Origin: a virus
Taxonomy: Duplodnaviria; Caudoviricetes
Strand: one strand, 5' to 3'
DNA: 41,051 nucleotides
IMG/VR virus record: IMGVR_UViG_3300039159_000055
Span: 1-41,051 of that record
The translations under genes were made by a program, and so were the position numbers. Numbering within the stretch: position 1 is the first letter of the stretch; every line of letters begins with the position of its first letter. Below are positions 5,132 to 16,129 of this stretch, in pieces. Under the pieces are notes generated by a model. The model made no database searches and was not told where the DNA came from. It saw only the letters and a list, made by a program, of their open reading frames with translations.

Positions 5132-5468
5132 GACAAAGATGCACGACATAAACATTTGCATAGAGGATGACAAGCTCAAGATCATTGCGTATAGATTGAA
5201 ATTGCAAAAAAACGGGGACGAAATTTACTTCGATACCGACACTAGGTTTGCAAGCGGTAAGGCGTTCGAGTGCCCTATCAACCACAAACCAAACCAAGAG
5301 CTGATAGCTTATGTTCTAGATTCGGAATACTGGAATGAGACTAGGACTTATTGGGATGGTTACTCAGACTGGCAGACAACAGAGTTCTTGACAATCGGGG
5401 ATGTTCCTGCTAGGATAGCAAAATGGATGGCAAGCTTGCCAGAGTATCAACTCACGATAGGAGATTAG
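5124..5468 (+). CDS. hypothetical protein
   Basis: AGGAGG RBS before ATG5124. Confidence 0.7.
   Translation: MAKTKMHDINICIEDDKLKIIAYRLKLQKNGDEIYFDTDTRFASGKAFECPINHKPNQELIAYVLDSEYWNETRTYWDGYSDWQTTEFLTIGDVPARIAKWMASLPEYQLTIGD
5388..5416 (+). promoter_or_regulatory. early promoter (intragenic)
   Basis: TTGACA-17 bp-TAGGAT with TGC. Confidence 0.65.
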
Positions 5469-7852: not shown

Positions 7853-8014
7853 TTGGCCAAGAGAACTTCGCCAGAGTTACCACCGAAACAATACAGTAAG
7901 TTTGCTTGGTGCATACTGGCCGATCACAATAACTGCCAAGAGTTTGCAAGCACCGTTGAATGCAATTGCGATTGCCATAATGAGGGAGATAACCATGAGA
8001 GAGAAGCTAACTAA
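7853..8014 (+). CDS. small Cys/His metal-binding protein (not in ORF track)
   Basis: TTG start; WCILADHNNC...CNCDCH. Confidence 0.5.
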   Translation: MAKRTSPELPPKQYSKFAWCILADHNNCQEFASTVECNCDCHNEGDNHEREAN

Positions 8015-9365
8015 GCTAAAGCCAGACCCAAGGCAGGAGATTGCCATTCAGAAGATGATTGCAAGCCCAACCAACGCCGCCTTGAACGCAAGTCTCATGG
8101 GTGTGGGCAAGACTCTTATGGCAGTAGAATCCGCCCTAAGACTAGAGGCCAAGACCATCCTAGTGATTGCACCTTTGAATACATTCTGGGGCTGGCACGA
8201 TGCCATACAGCGCCAAACAGACTACACTGCTTACGGATTGTTTCGGATAGATAGCACAAAGCAAGGCATCAAAGCACTTGCAGAGCTTGCCGATGGCAGA
8301 CCAGGATGGTATTTTGTGGGCCGCGAATACTTCCGCACTAAGGATTGGAGCAAGATCAAGCCCGACATGGCCTTGGTTGATGAATGCCACTTCATGCAAA
8401 ACAGGGCGAGCAAGGGCTTCAAGGTTGCCAAGACCCTAAAGGCTGGCTATAAGATGTCAATGTCTGGAACGCCATTCGGCAACAGGTTCGAAGGGTTCTG
8501 GGCCGTGTCAAGATTCCTATGGCCAGACGACAAGATCGTACCAAAGTCTTACTGGAAGTGGGTAGAAGCTTGGGCCAAGACCCAATACAGTCCCTTTGCT
8601 GGTGTCGAAGTTGTTGGGGAGAAGGTTGCTGGTGCATTTGCCAACACGCTTCCTTGCTATGTCAGGCTAGAGCCAGACTATAACATTGATGTTGTCTACG
8701 AGACTAGGTATGTTGACTTGGTTCCTGCTCAGCGCAAGATCTATGAGAAGTTCCAAAAAGACTTGGTCGTGTTCTTGCAAGAGAATCCACTGGTTGCAGA
8801 GGTTCCTATCGCCGCGAGGATCAGGCTTAGGCAGATGACCTTGGCTGTGCCAAGCATTACCGAAGATGAAATGGTTTACTTTGCGGAGGATGCAGTGTCT
8901 ACAAAGTACAAGGCGCTTGTTGAGATCATCGAAGACAACCCTACTGACAAGATGCTCATCTTGACAGACAGCCAAAAGTATGCTAAGATCGTAAACAATA
9001 GACTGAACGCCAAGTTCGGTGACGGTTGCTCATTCGAGTGGAGCGGCCAGGCAAGTCAGGCCAACCGCGAGATCGCAAAGCAGAGATTTATCAAGGATGA
9101 TTTGCAATACATAGTTGCAGTTATACCAGCGATTGCCGAGGGCGTTGACGGCTTGCAGGATGCTTGCCGAACCGTGGTATGGTTGTCGCATAGCGATAGC
9201 AACATACTAAACCAGCAGGTGCTTGACCGTGTCAGAAGGCGCGGCCAGCAAAGGGTAGTTCAGGTGTACGACATAGTCGCAAGAGATACTTACGATGAGG
9301 GCCAGCTAGATGTTTTGTTACAGAGAGAGCTTGACCTACGGGCAAGCCTAAAGGAGGAAAAATGA
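7995..9365 (+). CDS. SF2 (SNF2-like) DNA helicase
   Basis: GVGKT, DECH, SGTP, EGVDGLQ, QVLDRVRRRGQ motifs; RBS GAGGGAG before ATG7995. Confidence 0.9.
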   Translation: MREKLTKLKPDPRQEIAIQKMIASPTNAALNASLMGVGKTLMAVESALRLEAKTILVIAPLNTFWGWHDAIQRQTDYTAYGLFRIDSTKQGIKALAELADGRPGWYFVGREYFRTKDWSKIKPDMALVDECHFMQNRASKGFKVAKTLKAGYKMSMSGTPFGNRFEGFWAVSRFLWPDDKIVPKSYWKWVEAWAKTQYSPFAGVEVVGEKVAGAFANTLPCYVRLEPDYNIDVVYETRYVDLVPAQRKIYEKFQKDLVVFLQENPLVAEVPIAARIRLRQMTLAVPSITEDEMVYFAEDAVSTKYKALVEIIEDNPTDKMLILTDSQKYAKIVNNRLNAKFGDGCSFEWSGQASQANREIAKQRFIKDDLQYIVAVIPAIAEGVDGLQDACRTVVWLSHSDSNILNQQVLDRVRRRGQQRVVQVYDIVARDTYDEGQLDVLLQRELDLRASLKEEK

Positions 9366-9565
9366 GTTATGAATTCTGGAGTTTGTTCTGGGGTTGGCTT
9401 GCAATTGCGGCCTTTGTGATTCCAGTGGGAGCAGCCATACTAATTCAGGTTGTAGTGTTCCTGGTGGCAATGCTTGGAAGTTTTCTGGGCTTTGGAAGCC
9501 AGAGCACGGGCACCTCAAGGGTCAGCATGAGAGTAAACGCACACGACATGGACACGGACTACTGA
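9362..9565 (+). CDS. membrane protein
   Basis: Long hydrophobic N-terminal region; AAGGAGG RBS. Confidence 0.65.
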   Translation: MSYEFWSLFWGWLAIAAFVIPVGAAILIQVVVFLVAMLGSFLGFGSQSTGTSRVSMRVNAHDMDTDY

Positions 9566-10113
9566 TGGCTGAGTATGTATGGGAAGAGGCAGACAAGACT
9601 AACCCTTGGGGCCGCAAGCGGGCTAAGGGAACTCACTGCTCTAAGGGCCATGAGTTTACCGAAGAGAATACTTTTATCAGGCCGTATGACAAGACCCGAG
9701 TGTGTAGAGAATGCCGCAGACGATACGCAAGAAAGAAGTACCAAGACAACAAGGCCGCAGGCAAGAGCAAGTCAAAGCTAATACCAATGGTGGAGTTCGA
9801 GCTGCCACGGGTGTTTGGACTTGATGATAAGCCCGCAAAGCTATACAAGATTCTAAACGAAGGTCTAAGAAACATAGTCACACCGTGTCAAAAAGATACA
9901 GAGCTTTTTGACAATCCAGAAACTGTAACCGCGGATCAAGCAGAAGATGCTTGCCATGGCTGTCCGTTACTTAAGCAATGCCATGACTTTGCAAGTGCAA
10001 ACAAGGAGGAGTATGGTATCTGGGGCGGCATCAACTTTACGAAAGAGAGGTATAAAAATGGCACTGAGTGGTTCGAGAGTGAAGACGTTAGCGATTGGTT
10101 TATTGAACAATGA
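9565..10113 (+). CDS. whiB: WhiB-family transcription factor with N-terminal Zn-finger
   Basis: C-terminal PC...C-x2-C-x5-C...YGIWGG; N-terminal THCSKGHEFTEENT...CREC. Confidence 0.8.
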   Translation: MAEYVWEEADKTNPWGRKRAKGTHCSKGHEFTEENTFIRPYDKTRVCRECRRRYARKKYQDNKAAGKSKSKLIPMVEFELPRVFGLDDKPAKLYKILNEGLRNIVTPCQKDTELFDNPETVTADQAEDACHGCPLLKQCHDFASANKEEYGIWGGINFTKERYKNGTEWFESEDVSDWFIEQ

Positions 10114-10765
10114 GACCGATAGAGATAAGCAACGCAAGGTTGGTGCATCTCAGATCTCCAACCCCTGCACAAGGTGCTTGGCTAGTGATCTATCTGGCGT
10201 GAAGCAGGGCCCTAGTAAGTACTGGCTGGGCGGCAAGATAGGTACCGCTGTGCACCGAGCCATAGAGCAGGAGATACCCAACTCAGATCAGCCAGAGCTG
10301 ACTGACGTGAGGATCGAGGAGAAGATAATCCTAGGAGAGTTACAAGACTACGGAATAATAAGCTCTAAGCCCGACTTGACACTTGCTGGGCACGGTCATC
10401 TTATAGACTGGAAGACAACCACCAGAGCAAAGTCCAAGAAGATACAGAAGTGGATTGACGGAGTTAGTCAAGATGCGGCAACAACTTACACCATGCAAAA
10501 ATACATTGGGCAGAGTCAGCTCTATGCGTGGGGCACCAATAAGGCAGGAACATTTGTTGATGGAATTTCCTTAGTATTTATCAACAGAGACGGCACAAAC
10601 GAGATTGATGTGCTAGAATACACTTACGAGTACGATGAAGCTATGGCCTTAGCGTTGTGGAATAGGCTGGTTGCATTGTGGGATGAACTCCGAGAGGGGA
10701 GCCATCCTGAAAACTATCCCTCGCATTCCGAGTGCTACACCTGCTCTATAAACGGTCTGCTATAA
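10058..10765 (+). CDS. Cas4-like PD-(D/E)XK exonuclease
   Basis: GASQI..PC, GTAVH, KPD...IDWKT, QSQLY, C-terminal CYTC. Confidence 0.85.
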   Translation: MALSGSRVKTLAIGLLNNETDRDKQRKVGASQISNPCTRCLASDLSGVKQGPSKYWLGGKIGTAVHRAIEQEIPNSDQPELTDVRIEEKIILGELQDYGIISSKPDLTLAGHGHLIDWKTTTRAKSKKIQKWIDGVSQDAATTYTMQKYIGQSQLYAWGTNKAGTFVDGISLVFINRDGTNEIDVLEYTYEYDEAMALALWNRLVALWDELREGSHPENYPSHSECYTCSINGLL

Positions 10766-10766
10766 T
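10758..10766 (+). promoter_or_regulatory. extended -10 promoter
   Basis: TGCTATAAT upstream of AAGGAGG RBS. Confidence 0.5.
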
Positions 10767-10791
10767 TTCAAGTCTAACAAGGAGGATACAA

Positions 10792-11541
10792 ATGACTACA
10801 GCGACGCCTGTAACACCAGCTACACAGTTTCCAGAGCTATCCTTTGCCAAGCACGTTCACAAGGCAGAGGCACTAAACGCTCCGAAGACCATCCTAATTT
10901 ACGGGGATGCCGGCCGTGGTAAGACATGGCTTGCTGCCTCAGCTGCAGAACTTGCAGAGCTGTCACCAGTGCTACTAATTGACATCGAGGGCGGCGCATC
11001 AGCTATTGCCCGAGACTTCAAGGACGTGGACGTGGTCGCAGTAGACACACACGAGAAGCTGGACAAGGTTGTTGATGACCTTATCAACATCAAGCACAAG
11101 TACAAGACCGTGATCATCGACACACTCGGTGTGGCCATGGATCGTGCCGAAAAGGTATTCGGCGAGCGGCCAGAGAACAAGGGCAACAAGTTCGGCAAGT
11201 GGGGTGACCTGAAGATCTGGGCCAACAACTTAGTCCGAGCTCTTCACGCTGCACCATTCACCTCCATCATTCTGACTCACGCAGAGGATCAGAAGGATGA
11301 AAACAGCGGGGCAGTCAAGACTGTGCCGAACATTCCGGGTGGTTCCAAGAAGGATCTTCCAGGCATCCCGGACATCATTGGCTACCTAACTGCTCAGAAG
11401 AGAGAAGACGGCACGACTCAGCGTGTGTTGTTAGTAGAGTCTTCTGACAGGTTTGTGACCAAGAACCGTTTCAACTTGCCATCTACTATTGTAGATCCAA
11501 GTATCAACAAGATCTATTCACTAATCAAAGGAGGTAAGTAA
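10792..11541 (+). CDS. Sak4-like AAA ATPase / recombinase
   Basis: Walker A GDAGRGKT, IIDT, LTHAE, KNR motifs; lies between exonuclease and SSB. Confidence 0.85.
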   Translation: MTTATPVTPATQFPELSFAKHVHKAEALNAPKTILIYGDAGRGKTWLAASAAELAELSPVLLIDIEGGASAIARDFKDVDVVAVDTHEKLDKVVDDLINIKHKYKTVIIDTLGVAMDRAEKVFGERPENKGNKFGKWGDLKIWANNLVRALHAAPFTSIILTHAEDQKDENSGAVKTVPNIPGGSKKDLPGIPDIIGYLTAQKREDGTTQRVLLVESSDRFVTKNRFNLPSTIVDPSINKIYSLIKGGK

Positions 11542-12005
11542 TGGGTTACACTATTAACTTCAGTGCTGATGCACTAGAGACAAAAGGTGGTTCACTAGAG
11601 CCAATCGCAGCAGGATCGTACAACGCAACCGTGTTTAATGTTGTCGAGGAAGAGGTGCGCTCAGGTCCGAACGAGGGCAAGCCACGCTTCAACGTACAGT
11701 TCCGCATCAGCGAAGGTGCTAACGAGAACCGCCGCGTGTTCAGCTACGTTCCACTGTACGCTGCCAACGATGCTTGGAAGGCTGCTTCGTTCTTCAAGTC
11801 GCTTGGCTTCGACATCAAGGCTGGTAGCTTCAAGGTGCCAGCTACCGAGGACTTGCTAGGCAAGCCAATCGGGGTGCGCGTCAAGGTTGGTACAGACATG
11901 AACGGCCAGCCTCGCAACGAGGTTGCTGGGTTTGACAAGGCAACATCTGCTTCGGACGCACTCTCCTCAATGGGTGCAACCGCGGTAGACGGGGACACTT
12001 GGTAA
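11541..12005 (+). CDS. ssDNA-binding protein (DUF669-like)
   Basis: EPIAAGSYNATV...DLLGKPIGVRV...RNEV; acidic C-terminus ending DTW. Confidence 0.8.
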   Translation: MGYTINFSADALETKGGSLEPIAAGSYNATVFNVVEEEVRSGPNEGKPRFNVQFRISEGANENRRVFSYVPLYAANDAWKAASFFKSLGFDIKAGSFKVPATEDLLGKPIGVRVKVGTDMNGQPRNEVAGFDKATSASDALSSMGATAVDGDTW

Positions 12006-12047
12006 CCCTCTAAGCCAAGACAGGGGTGCGGCTGTATAACGCACAAC

Positions 12048-12125
12048 GCCCCAATTGGTATCGGTCAGCACCCTCCTCCCTGAGTTCCTGCAGCTGACCG
12101 CTGAGTTCGATTCTCAGCTGGGGCA
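12048..12125 (+). ncRNA. tRNA-like structured RNA with anti-SD loop
   Basis: Acceptor-like stem GCCCCA/TGGGGC, T-arm CTGAG-TTCGATT-CTCAG, 8-bp arm CGGTCAGC/GCTGACCG enclosing CCCTCCTCCCTG. Confidence 0.7.
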
Positions 12126-12276
12126 CGGTGGTTAGTGGCTTGCGAACACCACGCGCAAAGTTGGCGGAAAGCTCTAAGTGCTTAGGGTAAGTAAGTCTCA
12201 CCTGATTTTTTATCCTGAAAACTAACATAGGGACAATCTTTAGCTAGGAAACATGAAGTAACAGGGAGGAGGATAA

Positions 12277-14475
12277 ATGAAAACATCAGATTTTTTGACA
12301 GCAATTTTTGGCGAAGGCGTAGGTATAGCTACGCTCGTAGTTCGCAATGCTTCGAATGGTGAGCTAACAGAGCAGAAGTTTTACGAGTATCCAGAGCAGA
12401 AGCATCAGATGGTTGACTTCGCCACGGCCAGAGCAATGGAAGATGTTTACTTCTCCCCTATCCTTTTTAACGCTAACCGCAGAATCAAAGAGAACGCTAA
12501 GACTGTAAGCGTAATCTATGCAGACGCAGACGCATGCGGGCCAGAGAACTTTATGCTGGCACCTAGCATCTCCGTGGAAACATCAGAAGCAAGATGGCAC
12601 ACCTACTGGATCCTGGACTCAGAGGTTGACCCTCAGGATGCGGCACTACTTTCCAAGAAAGTAGCCTACGCTCACGCCCATCAGGGTTGCGACAAGTCTG
12701 GCTGGAACACAACCAAGCTGCTACGCCTGCCAAACACACGCAACATGAAGCGCGAAGAGCCCTACAGCATCCAAGCAACCACAACCGGGGAAGTCTACAC
12801 GTTCGAGCAAATAGAAGCTGTCTATGGCGATGTTGCCGTAGAAGCCATTCGTGACCTTGCGATCCTCCCAATGCCAGAAGGCTTCCCCGGAATACTAGAG
12901 GTGCTAGAGAAACTGTCACACAATCCGCAGGTTGTGGGCCTTTACATGGAGACACCGCCGCACAATGCTGACCTGTCTAAGCTTCTTTGGAAGCTAGAGA
13001 TGGAGTTGTTCCGTGAGGGGCTGACCGCAGAAGAAGTCTTCACTGTCGCTCGCCATGCCAAGTGTAACAAATACCACAGCCCTGACCGACCAAAGCGTTC
13101 CGACGCCGATGGCGATCTGTGGCGTGAGGTACAGCGGGCCAGCGGTAGTTTTGCATCTAACGTAGATACATTTGTTCCAGCATCGATCACAGACGAAGCT
13201 CCTATCGCTAGGTTTGAGCCAGTTGACATCTCTTTTCTAACTGACATTGAGAGAGAAGTGGTCGAGCAGAGCCCTACATTTGTCGATCAGTATGTCAAGT
13301 GGGCACGTAGCAAGACTGACGGTGCCTTGGGCTACCAGATTGCAAGTGCCTTTACTATCTTGTCATCGGTGTTCTCCGAGTGGGGCTACGCTGTGCCACG
13401 CTACGGCAAGATGGGCCTGAACCTTTGGTTCATGGTGTTAGGTGAGACCACCGCGGCTCGTAAGTCAACAAGCAGGCAGCTCATGCTTAGGGTTGTTAGG
13501 TCCTACGAGAAGTTTGGTGGCTACCAAATAGACATCGGATCTGATGCAACTCCCGAAGGTGTGACTGCAGTTCTGGCTGACCGAGATAAGAAGACCAGCC
13601 TACTGCACCGAGACGAGGTGCAAGGTATGTTCAAGGACTTTATGAACAAGACCTACATGGCGTCTGCTGCCGAGCGGTTCACCGAGCTTTACGATGGCCA
13701 CGTACCTGTGGTTATCAGGTCGGCTAAGGACAAGCGCCAGACCGAGAGAGCAGAGACCAACTTCATAATGTATTTGATGGGCATCACAAGTAAGACCGCT
13801 GATGTCCTGACCAACGAGTACTTTAGGTCCGGCTTCTTGGCTAGGTTTATCTACGTGACCGCAGGCTCACCTCCTAGGACCCGCGAGTCTGAAGACATAC
13901 AGCAGGCCGACGAATACGAAGTGGCTGTCAAGGATGGCGTGATGGATGGCATGGTTGCTGGCTTGTTTAGCTCTGTGACTTACTGGCAGAAAAAGGGCCA
14001 GCCAACCCAAAAGCCAGTGCGCCTAAGCCAAGCGTCTCTGGATAGGTTCAACCAGTACAAGTGGGACATGGGTAACTTTGCAGAGAGTCACCCTGACCGT
14101 GAATCTATCGAGCCATCCAGGCAGAGGCTTGCCCTGTCCGTTTGGAAGTGTGCGACCCTACTTGCGATGCACGAGAAGTGCGAGGAGGTAAAGCTGCACC
14201 ATATGATTATCGCGATTTACTACTCAGAGAAGTGGTTCGAGAACCTGATCCAAATGGCATCCGCTATCTCTGCATCTGAATGGCAGAGAGATGTGGATAA
14301 GCTTGAGGCCTTTGTTGTGGAGCGTGGTGGGAAGGTCCGCTACGAGGAAGCATACAGGAAGTTTAACAACAAGAAGAAGCGAGAGTTCGATGACATCATC
14401 GAGGCTCTTAGGTCGCAAGCAAGAGTCATTTCAGTTGTTGATAATCGCAAGACTTATTTGGAGGTGTTAGCTTAA
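12277..14475 (+). CDS. RepB-type primase fused to DUF3987 helicase-like domain
   Basis: YADAD, ETS..RWHTYW, LLRLPNTRNMK in the N-terminal part; GETTAARKST, RDE, SGFLARF in the C-terminal part. Confidence 0.8.
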   Translation: MKTSDFLTAIFGEGVGIATLVVRNASNGELTEQKFYEYPEQKHQMVDFATARAMEDVYFSPILFNANRRIKENAKTVSVIYADADACGPENFMLAPSISVETSEARWHTYWILDSEVDPQDAALLSKKVAYAHAHQGCDKSGWNTTKLLRLPNTRNMKREEPYSIQATTTGEVYTFEQIEAVYGDVAVEAIRDLAILPMPEGFPGILEVLEKLSHNPQVVGLYMETPPHNADLSKLLWKLEMELFREGLTAEEVFTVARHAKCNKYHSPDRPKRSDADGDLWREVQRASGSFASNVDTFVPASITDEAPIARFEPVDISFLTDIEREVVEQSPTFVDQYVKWARSKTDGALGYQIASAFTILSSVFSEWGYAVPRYGKMGLNLWFMVLGETTAARKSTSRQLMLRVVRSYEKFGGYQIDIGSDATPEGVTAVLADRDKKTSLLHRDEVQGMFKDFMNKTYMASAAERFTELYDGHVPVVIRSAKDKRQTERAETNFIMYLMGITSKTADVLTNEYFRSGFLARFIYVTAGSPPRTRESEDIQQADEYEVAVKDGVMDGMVAGLFSSVTYWQKKGQPTQKPVRLSQASLDRFNQYKWDMGNFAESHPDRESIEPSRQRLALSVWKCATLLAMHEKCEEVKLHHMIIAIYYSEKWFENLIQMASAISASEWQRDVDKLEAFVVERGGKVRYEEAYRKFNNKKKREFDDIIEALRSQARVISVVDNRKTYLEVLA

Positions 14476-14657
14476 TGGATAACTTTAGCAGAAAAGCAAA
14501 GTTTGAAAGTGTAAGGTTTGAACATGAAGCAGTAATGTTTCATTCTATGAAATACGAGCTAGGGTTTAGATATCCACTTGCCCTAGCTTGCTACCAATTA
14601 CATCAAATAATTAAGATGAAGGAGGCTAAGATAGATGAAGACAATGTTGGCAGTTGA
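14475..14657 (+). CDS. hypothetical protein
   Basis: GGAGG RBS, coupled. Confidence 0.55.
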   Translation: MDNFSRKAKFESVRFEHEAVMFHSMKYELGFRYPLALACYQLHQIIKMKEAKIDEDNVGS

Positions 14658-15078
14658 TCCAGGTGGCACTACTGGACTTGCATTATTTGAGTACGATGAC
14701 GAAAGCTACAACCTAATCTGGACAAAGCAGATAGCAAACAAGCTACAGGGATTCCTAGACTTTCATTGGGATGAGCTGGAAGACATTAGGCTGGACCAGA
14801 TCGTCTGTGAGTCATTTGACCTAAGGGAAGGAGTGCATGGCGTTGACCTGAGTGCCGTGTACATAATTGGTGCGATAGAGGCTCTATACCCTAGGGGTGT
14901 GTACGACTTAGTTATGCAAAAGCCTAGCCAGAAGGCGCTTTGTTCCGATCAGAGACTACACAAGATGGGGCTGCACCAAACAGGTAAGCCACACGCCAGT
15001 GACTCGGTGCGCCATGGTATAATTTACTTACGCAATAAGAAACACAAGGCAGTACTTAAAAACGGATGGGAGGACTAA
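14635..15078 (+). CDS. RuvC-like Holliday junction resolvase
   Basis: LAVDPGGTTG, VCESF, HASDSVRH. Confidence 0.8.
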   Translation: MKTMLAVDPGGTTGLALFEYDDESYNLIWTKQIANKLQGFLDFHWDELEDIRLDQIVCESFDLREGVHGVDLSAVYIIGAIEALYPRGVYDLVMQKPSQKALCSDQRLHKMGLHQTGKPHASDSVRHGIIYLRNKKHKAVLKNGWED

Positions 15079-15815
15079 TGAAGATTCTATTTTTAGATAT
15101 CGAAACCAGTCCAATTACAGCTTACACTTGGGGTCTTTGGGACCAAAACATTTCGATTGGCCAGATAGTCAAGGCCACTGAGATGATGTGCTTTGGAGCC
15201 AGATGGTATGGCGAGAAGAAGGTTACCTTTAGATCCGAGTACCATCACGGCAAGAAGGAAATGCTAGAACAGGTTCACAGGATGCTTGACGAGGCCGACG
15301 TGCTAGTCGGTTGGAACTCCAAGGCGTTCGATAGTAAGCACCTGAAGCGTGAGTTCATCGAGAACGGCATGCTGCCACCATCTCCCTACAAAGAGATGGA
15401 CCTGATGCTGACTGTAAAGGCCCAGTTTAAGTTTCCTAGTAACAAGCTTGACTATGTATCACAGAAGCTGGGAGTGGGCGCTAAGGTGAAGCACTCTGGC
15501 TTTGACTTGTGGCTAGGCTGCATGGCTGGCAATGCCAAGTCGTGGGTTGAGATGAAGAAGTATCAGATCCAGGACGTGCACCTACTGATTGACCTTTATG
15601 AAAAGCTAAAGCCTTGGATAACAAACCACCCACACGCTGGTCTTTATAACGGCATCGAGGATGGCTGTGCTGTGTGCTCTTCTAAAAACCTACAGAAGCG
15701 TGGCCTTGCAAGGACCACCTCCGGGACGTATCAAAGGTTCCAGTGCCAGGATTGTGGCAAGTGGCAACGCGGTCCTATCTCCATCAACAAGACTATAACC
15801 AGATCGATAGCATGA
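15078..15815 (+). CDS. DnaQ-like/RNase H-fold exonuclease with C-terminal Zn ribbon
   Basis: LDIETSP, WNSKAFD, YQIQDV; CAVC...CQDCG. Confidence 0.85.
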   Translation: MKILFLDIETSPITAYTWGLWDQNISIGQIVKATEMMCFGARWYGEKKVTFRSEYHHGKKEMLEQVHRMLDEADVLVGWNSKAFDSKHLKREFIENGMLPPSPYKEMDLMLTVKAQFKFPSNKLDYVSQKLGVGAKVKHSGFDLWLGCMAGNAKSWVEMKKYQIQDVHLLIDLYEKLKPWITNHPHAGLYNGIEDGCAVCSSKNLQKRGLARTTSGTYQRFQCQDCGKWQRGPISINKTITRSIA

Positions 15816-16129
15816 TTCGTAAGTGGTTATCCAGATTGTTCAGGCGAAGGCCTGAGGAGGACCTTGAGCTCGAGGGTGACTACATTGGCTACACTGTCAT
15901 TGATGGCGAAACTGGGATGATGCTTTCTGTCCTCATGGTTTGCGGCTGTGGTAACCCGGTCTCTAGATTGGTTGAGGGAGAAAACACCTTCTTCCACTGT
16001 GAGCACTGTGACGTAGAATGCACAGAGAAACCATGTGAGTCCTGCACTGCCCACTTCTTGTTTGATGCTGAAGCTGCAAAGCTAGGTTCTAGAGAGGGAT
16101 TTGAGTACCCCGAACAAGAACAAGATTAA
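15812..16129 (+). CDS. Cys-rich hypothetical protein
   Basis: CGCG, CEHC, CESC. Confidence 0.65.
   Translation: MIRKWLSRLFRRRPEEDLELEGDYIGYTVIDGETGMMLSVLMVCGCGNPVSRLVEGENTFFHCEHCDVECTEKPCESCTAHFLFDAEAAKLGSREGFEYPEQEQD

Follow-up and report, generated by a model that had tools for sequence, protein, structure and literature searches.

The stretch of DNA analysed here (the window, 41,051 nt) is the IMG/VR virus record IMGVR_UViG_3300039159_000055, which is 85% complete and derives from a siphovirus-type phage. Its rightward genes include those for a helicase, WhiB, a Cas4-like exonuclease, Sak4, an SSB-like protein and a primase, and its virion genes are oriented opposite to this replication arm. 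Between the genes for the SSB-like protein and the primase, a tRNA-like RNA element was found in which a large loop, standing in place of the anticodon arm, is complementary to the Shine-Dalgarno (SD) region of the primase gene (Table 1). Comparison with related phages suggests that the element is a host-processed antisense RNA that acts in trans and represses translation of the primase, a reading that we consider reasonably probable; it would work like the C4 and CI RNAs without being a member of either family, in phages in which no integrase was found.

Table 1. Features of the SSB-primase region of the window.
Feature	Position	Strand	Remarks
SSB-like gene (DUF669)	11541..12005	+	PHROG 378 SSB, E 3e-5; Pfam DUF669
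Compact H-type pseudoknot	12020..12044	+	S1 12020-12023/12032-12035; S2 12026-12030/12040-12044
tRNA-like RNA, 78 nt	12048..12125	+	Upstream of primase, after SSB-like gene
Acceptor stem, 6 bp	12048-12053/12119-12124	+	Discriminator A12125, then invariant C12126
Stemless linker with invariant GG	12057-12058	+	
Middle stem	12063-12069/12093-12099	+	
Guide loop, 23 nt, replacing anticodon arm	12070..12092	+	Seed 1 12072-12082 (anti-SD); seed 2 12085-12091
T-arm	12100-12118	+	T-loop 12106-12112
Lineage-specific spacer	12127..12242	+	Contains hairpin 12182-12218
Target site A, upstream specificity site	12243..12250	+	
Target site B, primase SD region	12262..12272	+	
Primase, 732 aa	12277..14475	+	Predicted regulated gene; PHROG 10514, C-terminal DUF3987
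Small open reading frame (ORF)	14475..14657	+	Start overlaps primase stop

The element shows the tRNA hallmarks of a T-loop, a GG, a 12-bp acceptor/T stack and a discriminator; a D stem and a 7-nt anticodon loop are missing. A first-pass annotation of the window had noted that an Rfam match would remove the novelty of the fold, and neither Rfam (0 matches at gathering thresholds and none up to E 10) nor ARAGORN (0 calls in the window) gave a match; blastn of the intergenic region against 50,697 GenBank phages returned a single 26-nt match in the T-arm and nothing else. The 78-nt tRNA-like layout and the fold coordinates proposed in that annotation held, with one refinement to its 8-bp middle stem: G12100 has two possible partners, C12062 (8-bp middle stem and 5-bp T-stem) or C12118 (7 + 6 bp), and the predicted fold pairs it with C12118 to give 6 + 6 = 12 coaxial pairs. 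Folded alone, the window element only modestly exceeded chance (z -2.5, with 5 of 200 shuffles equally good), and the strength of the evidence for the fold lies in its conservation rather than in single-sequence folding. Covariance model R1 gave the window element, which is part of its seed, 57.5 bits.

A first set of 92 viral loci plus the window yielded 65 distinct complete SSB-primase intergenic regions after loci without either gene end were dropped, and the element was present in all 65 (64 found by the parser and the 65th by the covariance model). For structure statistics, 62 distinct elements were aligned by sequence only. In this alignment 92.8% of 1045 cells were paired, a value matched by none of 500 shuffles, and slid controls gave 30-45%. 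Two-sided changes were found in 16 of the 17 base pairs and the elbow was conserved throughout the family, which bears out the tRNA mimicry with stem co-variation that had been proposed: the GG, the T-loop core GTTCRA.C and the C after the discriminator were invariant (62/62), the 12-bp coaxial stack was present in 57 elements and the GG was at position 10 in 56. The loop was 10-33 nt long in the family and 92% pyrimidine, with CTCC in 59 of the 62 loops. Among 80 further viral loci returned, the 36 that looked new, none of which had been used for the model, were searched and 35 contained the element, the sole miss having 186 nt upstream. Of 80 metagenome loci 52 were searched, these too being independent of the model, with the element found in 48; three of the misses had 155-921 nt upstream and one had a primase of 37% identity.

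Loop positions 12072-12082 were shown to be an exact 11-nt complement of 12262-12272, and 12085-12089 to be complementary to 12246-12250 (TTCCT with AGGAA), with the two segments in antiparallel order, all as first annotated. The predicted loop-leader duplex has an energy of -30.0 kcal/mol, without correction for loop closure or target opening. The primase SD was the sole perfect complement of at least 9 nt to the loop on both strands of the 41-kb window, and the primase leader ranked 1 of 73 gene leaders. Since any pyrimidine loop matches SDs, co-variation was evaluated by swapping partners after correction for main effects, each cluster being represented by a single member. Cognate pairs were better than swapped pairs, with Z values of -4.9, -4.4, and -3.2 at 35, 27, and 13 clusters, respectively. 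Across 20 genomes the primase was the best of 38 gene families (Z -5.8), followed by the exonuclease (Z -3.2), and among the gene leaders of its own genome the primase leader was first in 5 of 21 genomes and third or better in 12; the crude ORF caller used, which placed wrong starts for some genes (e.g., the window exonuclease), brings noise into the leader-rank, gene-family and strand comparisons. Genes on the same strand co-varied weakly with the loop (Z about -3), and opposite-strand virion genes showed no co-variation. This speaks against an SD style shared by the whole genome, while the same-strand signal leaves room for secondary targets. The leaders of the Cas4-like exonuclease (window 9947-10765, and homologues) and, in some lineages, of Sak4 also matched the loop well and are possible secondary targets.

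When the leader was split, the SD site gave Z -3.8 to -4.7 and the upstream non-SD site alone Z -4.9 to -7.8. The upstream site showed compensations unrelated to the SD, with 10-11-nt matches that differ among loci L193, L298, and L067 in step with their loops. The second loop segment, first noted as a single possible pairing, is thereby a conserved, co-varying site across the family. No start of an upstream ORF was seen by eye after site A within the leaders listed. In 44 disjoint tree pairs drawn from 107 of the 112 loop/leader pairs, about 22 favored the cognate partner, 8 the swapped one and the rest tied (sign p median 0.013, worst 0.043). The predicted co-variation of loop and ribosome-binding site (RBS) was replicated in two held-out sets, the second giving Z -3.5 (17 loops, two loci unparsed); the first is considered below.

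Guide loops with other targets were also found. Record G011 contains a second copy of the element (L129 13268-13343, minus strand) behind a TTGACA-type promoter-like site identified by eye. The loop of this copy is rich in GU instead of being anti-SD, and it matches the CA-rich leaders of two divergent genes; in 48.7 kb it has three perfect complements of at least 9 nt, two of them in leaders. The first site is its own next leader (9 + 6 bp, in antiparallel order) and the second the leader of an opposite-strand gene 2.8 kb away, and this copy appears to be a natural retargeting to non-SD leaders. A pattern scan for copies of this type returned only that of G011, one ordinary member and two D-armless 60-nt folds. 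TRNA-like folds of 60 nt without a D-arm, scoring 33-37 bits, lie at L275 298-357 (-) and L245 290-349 (+) in AT-rich phage contigs, between a hairpin and a gene start. Besides, a sister fold with the same GG position and stack as the primase-linked family was found in another phage group between exonuclease and HNH genes (L357 237-320 (-), L359 411-495 (-), G144 5183-5265 (-), and G145 13484-13567 (+)); it scored 31-35 bits and has a pyrimidine loop of 29-37 nt. The G145 loop has 11-12-nt matches in the leaders of two non-adjacent genes 1.3-1.5 kb downstream, and the best match of the G144 loop was 9 nt and not top in energy.

From these observations we infer the following course of events. 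The replication operon would be transcribed through the element, with the SSB-like gene predicted to be upstream on the same transcript. RNase P would cut at 12048 and a tRNA-type 3′ cut would follow 12125, as suggested by the conserved elbow, the 12-bp stack and the discriminator-C end, and the upstream pseudoknot would shield the newly made 3′ end of the SSB mRNA. The loop of the resulting stable RNA of about 78 nt would then pair with the SD and the upstream site of the primase mRNA. Early transcripts would thus give a pulse of primase, after which the RNA, rising with genome copy number, would cap primase while SSB synthesis continues; a catalytic initiator co-transcribed with a stoichiometric SSB would be placed under pulse-then-cap control, with feedback from the growing number of genomes. 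The RNA could also silence a relative that superinfects the cell and has the same leader. The small ORF that follows the primase gene is likely to be translationally coupled to it, and since its start overlaps the primase stop, repression would be polar and spread downstream. Repression is preferred over activation because the match is longer at the SD than at the upstream site. A search of 11400-12600 gave no promoter-like site; a TATAA directly 5′ of the element was rejected as a -10 box, as it forms the pseudoknot loop and is not conserved in that role.

Several observations weigh against this interpretation. The full CCA is encoded in only 10 of the 62 elements, and the acceptor stem is 5-6 bp across the family, while PMC4201824 gives a 7-bp acceptor stem as a major RNase P determinant. 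The effect sizes are modest (about 2 kcal/mol and 1 nt), the worst p value in the 13-cluster test was 0.14 (longest match), and the first held-out set replicated the co-variation weakly (Z -2.0, p 0.028, 23 loops). In 9 of 21 genomes the primase leader ranked only 5th-21st; the 21st-ranked record was scored with a relative's loop. At loci more than 300 nt apart no energy signal was seen (Z -0.2; longest-match Z 3.6), and the anti-SD was lost in some lineages with the shortest leaders (L053, L333, and L336). Many duplexes are just 7-9 bp, which is marginal in trans without a chaperone, and the predicted sign, repression, is read solely from coverage of the SD. Finally, nested folding of the uncut precursor placed the loop on the leader at the expense of the acceptor stem in 51 of 59 cases.

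This last result fits a lock in cis, in which the loop of the uncut precursor would hold the primase SD until tRNA-type cleavage frees it and translation starts; replication would in this way be coupled to the tRNA-processing activity of the host. We regard such a lock as possible, though clearly less likely than action in trans. It agrees with the element always being upstream on the same strand, which holds for the G011 copy too, with duplexes of 7-9 bp, which are better suited to cis, and with the window precursor, for which the fold with loop-SD pairing had -79.8 kcal/mol versus -66.6 for the tRNA fold. However, nested models cannot show the pseudoknotted state, and precursors with shuffled leaders also folded loop-on-leader in 33 of 57 cases, compared with 50 of 57 with real leaders. 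Whether the RNA acts in cis or trans had been left open in the first-pass annotation, and the comparative evidence leans to trans. The distance from element to primase in relatives ranges from 12 to 1018 nt, with 0-3 real tRNAs (Asn, Thr, Trp), mini-tmRNA-like units (tmRNA, transfer-messenger RNA) or an HNH-like ORF in between, and complementarity did not decay over this range or when tRNAs intervened (44 of 112 pairs, Z -3.3), one to three of which would probably be cut co-transcriptionally. In 16 of 64 cases no more than 12 nt separate the discriminator from the start of the best site, and the distance can be as short as 5-8 nt; such positions would be hard to reach in an L-shaped fold. The opposite-strand match of the G011 copy cannot act in cis, and together with the distant matches of the G145 sister fold it favors trans.

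Site A often lies directly after the 3′ end of the last tRNA and co-varies strongly, and the RNA could accordingly be imagined as an activator or stabilizer that blocks 5′-end-dependent decay by binding site A at the 5′ end newly created on the primase mRNA by cleavage. This is unlikely, as pairing at the SD, which also co-varies, is longer (7.3 versus 5.8 nt on average; 11 versus 5 nt in the window) and as sites A and B both lie within the 30S footprint. Slightly less likely still is a broad anti-SD RNA that mainly damps many early and middle phage genes or host mRNAs, with the primase as one target among many; the common CTCC, the weak same-strand co-variation and the signal of the Cas4-like exonuclease would fit it, but the secondary effects were 0.4-1 kcal/mol compared with 2.9 for the primase, and specific targets are indicated by site A, which is not an SD, and by the retargeting of the G011 copy. 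It is very improbable that the element, rather than being antisense, signals processing, acts as a decoy for anti-tRNA nucleases of the host, or is an attachment site or an origin-linked DNA structure, with a loop match that is a by-product of SD style. Although the slot is a tRNA island in which distant isolates have tRNAs or tRNA-like units without a guide loop before the primase, and a few lineages have degenerate loops, such a reading leaves the co-variation specific to the primase leader unexplained, virion-gene leaders do not co-vary, the G-U pairs and T-loop point to RNA, and an att core was rejected because the T-stem sequence is too variable and because 21 records yielded no integrase.

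Antisense repression in trans would resemble control by the C4 RNA of phages P1/P7 (Rfam RF01695), the targets of which are icd/ant. Shared with C4 are a length of about 77 nt, a closed terminal stem and a two-part recognition of the RBS and an upstream site, sites A and B both co-varying here. PMC5320573 describes maturation of C4 by RNase P to about 77 nt, with b′ occluding the RBS and a′ binding upstream. C4 is cut from a longer transcript by host RNase P, a step for which the present element shows structural determinants. It differs in giving no Rfam C4 match (gathering threshold or E 10), in its true T-loop and GG elbow, in carrying both seeds in one loop where C4 has a three-stem fold with a′ and b′ on different loops, and in targeting the primase in actinophages without integrase or ParA found, as opposed to temperate proteobacterial phages. 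A search of 21 records, of which 12 are at least 90% complete, gave no tyrosine integrase, serine recombinase or ParA, so the context of C4/CI-type immunity was not seen, other forms of latency being possible. The CI RNA of satellite phage P4 is, according to PMC4825925, processed out of the transcript that it targets, and it controls genes of replication through two target sites. Likewise, the present element sits in the transcript that it would control, with two target sites and a replication gene; unlike CI, which binds seqA on its upstream and seqC on its downstream side and brings about termination in lysogeny, it has both sites downstream, in the primase leader. No intrinsic terminator was found between the element and the primase gene, and no loop complement of at least 9 nt was found upstream in the window.

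The tRNA-like domain of tmRNA has a stemless D-loop, a T-arm and a long stem in place of the anticodon arm, as has the element. A tmRNA was rejected on the lack of a G3-U70 pair among the first three pairs, of a tag ORF and of an ARAGORN/Rfam call; the mini-tmRNA-like units mentioned above are separate from the element and lie beside it in the same islands. YrlA/bacterial Y RNA (RF02553), likewise a tRNA mimic, was rejected because there was no Rfam match, no TROVE gene in 11 records and no D stem, and because a guide loop is present; YrlA has D and T stems and adjoins Ro60 (PMC4201824). Cuckoo/CcsR RNAs, as described in PMC4615179, consist of 2-4 adjacent hairpins, each with a 9-nt motif. The anti-SD loop is similar and the 9-mer noted in the first-pass annotation is indeed present in the window loop, but it does not define the family, occurring in only 3 of 62 distinct elements, and with one loop in a tRNA frame membership was rejected. 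The elements appear to form a new RNA family, well supported comparatively and apparently undescribed, whose mode of regulation is of a known kind. No description was found in the literature, subscription papers being largely outside the scope of the search, and an unannotated listing among the 8,495 IMG/VR candidate RNAs of PMC10690425 is possible.

Antisense control by RNAs that RNase P matures has been described in temperate phages of proteobacteria (C4 and CI); here it would occur in phages without sign of lysogeny, directed at a replication initiator, and with a real tRNA elbow and over 100 distinct natural loop/leader pairs. If this holds, lytic phages of slow-growing aquatic-type actinobacteria would set their SSB:primase ratio and limit replication by RNA, some "tRNA islands" would be regulatory, and a naturally retargeted scaffold of about 70 nt would be available for antisense tools in actinobacteria. 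More speculatively, lytic actinophages may have evolved programmable minimal guide RNAs on a tRNA scaffold, matured and stabilized by the host as tRNAs, with the guide in place of the anticodon arm, that have repeatedly been re-aimed (primase, CA-rich leaders of early genes, other phage groups). Those aimed at the primase would then link phage replication, and the exclusion of relatives, to the tRNA-processing capacity of the host and would govern replication by RNA alone, without lysogeny; we put this forward tentatively.

The nearest isolates infect Arthrobacter, Curtobacterium, and Clavibacter, with primase identities of 31-38%, and related contigs were binned with Microbacteriaceae; together with WhiB, this points to an actinobacterium as host of the window phage. 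Five isolate relatives in this identity range lacked the guide-loop element and had the pseudoknot and/or tRNAs, no cultured model phage carrying the element was found among isolate relatives, and four GTDB contigs and one metagenome contig with primases of 31-37% identity were likewise without it. Based on its absence from these five isolates and five distant contigs, the element seems to mark a clade with a primase identity of about 55% or more, a large set of uncultured phages of actinobacteria. It was not found in 121 genomes of the family of record G021, a search in which only 40 candidates were scored per genome and no positive control was included. In the replication arm of the window (7902-16129) a DnaQ-like exonuclease is present and no DNA polymerase was found among the 31 proteins scanned, the record being 85% complete. 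A non-coding stretch near the left end (595-650) contains repeated TTATCCACA-type 9-mers, which we take to be DnaA-box-like, and is a candidate origin region.

The element itself was correctly delimited in the first-pass annotation, but the pseudoknot upstream, which belongs to the unit, had been missed. In the window it ends 3 nt before the 5′ end of the tRNA-like RNA, abutting the predicted RNase P site. A pseudoknot score of at least 9 was obtained in 62 of 64 intergenic regions versus 7 of 90 shuffles, with many compensated stem variants; it lies after the SSB stop, and in 60 of 64 the gap to the element is 1-5 nt. Being located at the predicted cut, it may serve to cap the 3′ end that RNase P would leave on the SSB mRNA. 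MALAT1/mascRNA is a comparable case of an RNase P-cut tRNA-like unit that leaves a protective structure on the upstream RNA; it differs in being eukaryotic, in having a triple helix instead of a pseudoknot and in having no guide loop. The STAXI pseudoknot is found near SSB genes, sometimes near c4 RNAs, and is repeated two to three times with UUCG loops (PMC2864571); membership was rejected, as the present pseudoknot is single copy, has no UUCG loops and gave no Rfam match. The same pseudoknot type, placed behind the stop of the upstream gene, was seen in Arthrobacter phage Amigo (L094 2543-2573) before ordinary tRNAs, and in the upstream regions of the distant contigs L236 and L235; across these cases it precedes ordinary tRNAs or no tRNA at all. 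The pseudoknot appears to be older and more widespread than the guide RNA.

Other small units were seen in the tRNA islands. In L089 (3600-4000) an HNH-like ORF, identified by eye, lies inside the island between element and primase. Mini-tmRNA-like RNAs of about 80 nt were found at L028/L030 2904-2982, L056 2892-2970, L066 2891-2969, L026 7762-7840, L119 6200-6278, and L095 2886-2968. They have tRNA-like ends only, with no room for a tag frame, and often lie directly before the primase leader; the copy of Jojan60 scored 61.8 bits to Rfam tmRNA over 83 nt. They could bind SmpB or act as a processing signal. A very small tRNA-like unit that has the acceptor, the GG linker and the T-arm but nearly no middle arm (L100 15477-15531 (-), also L006, L007, and L010) sits right after the pseudoknot, ahead of the guide-loop element. 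In the cultured Clavibacter phage CN1A (L098 ~2924-2972), an unannotated minimal tRNA-like unit with a CCA end was identified by eye just before the primase RBS.

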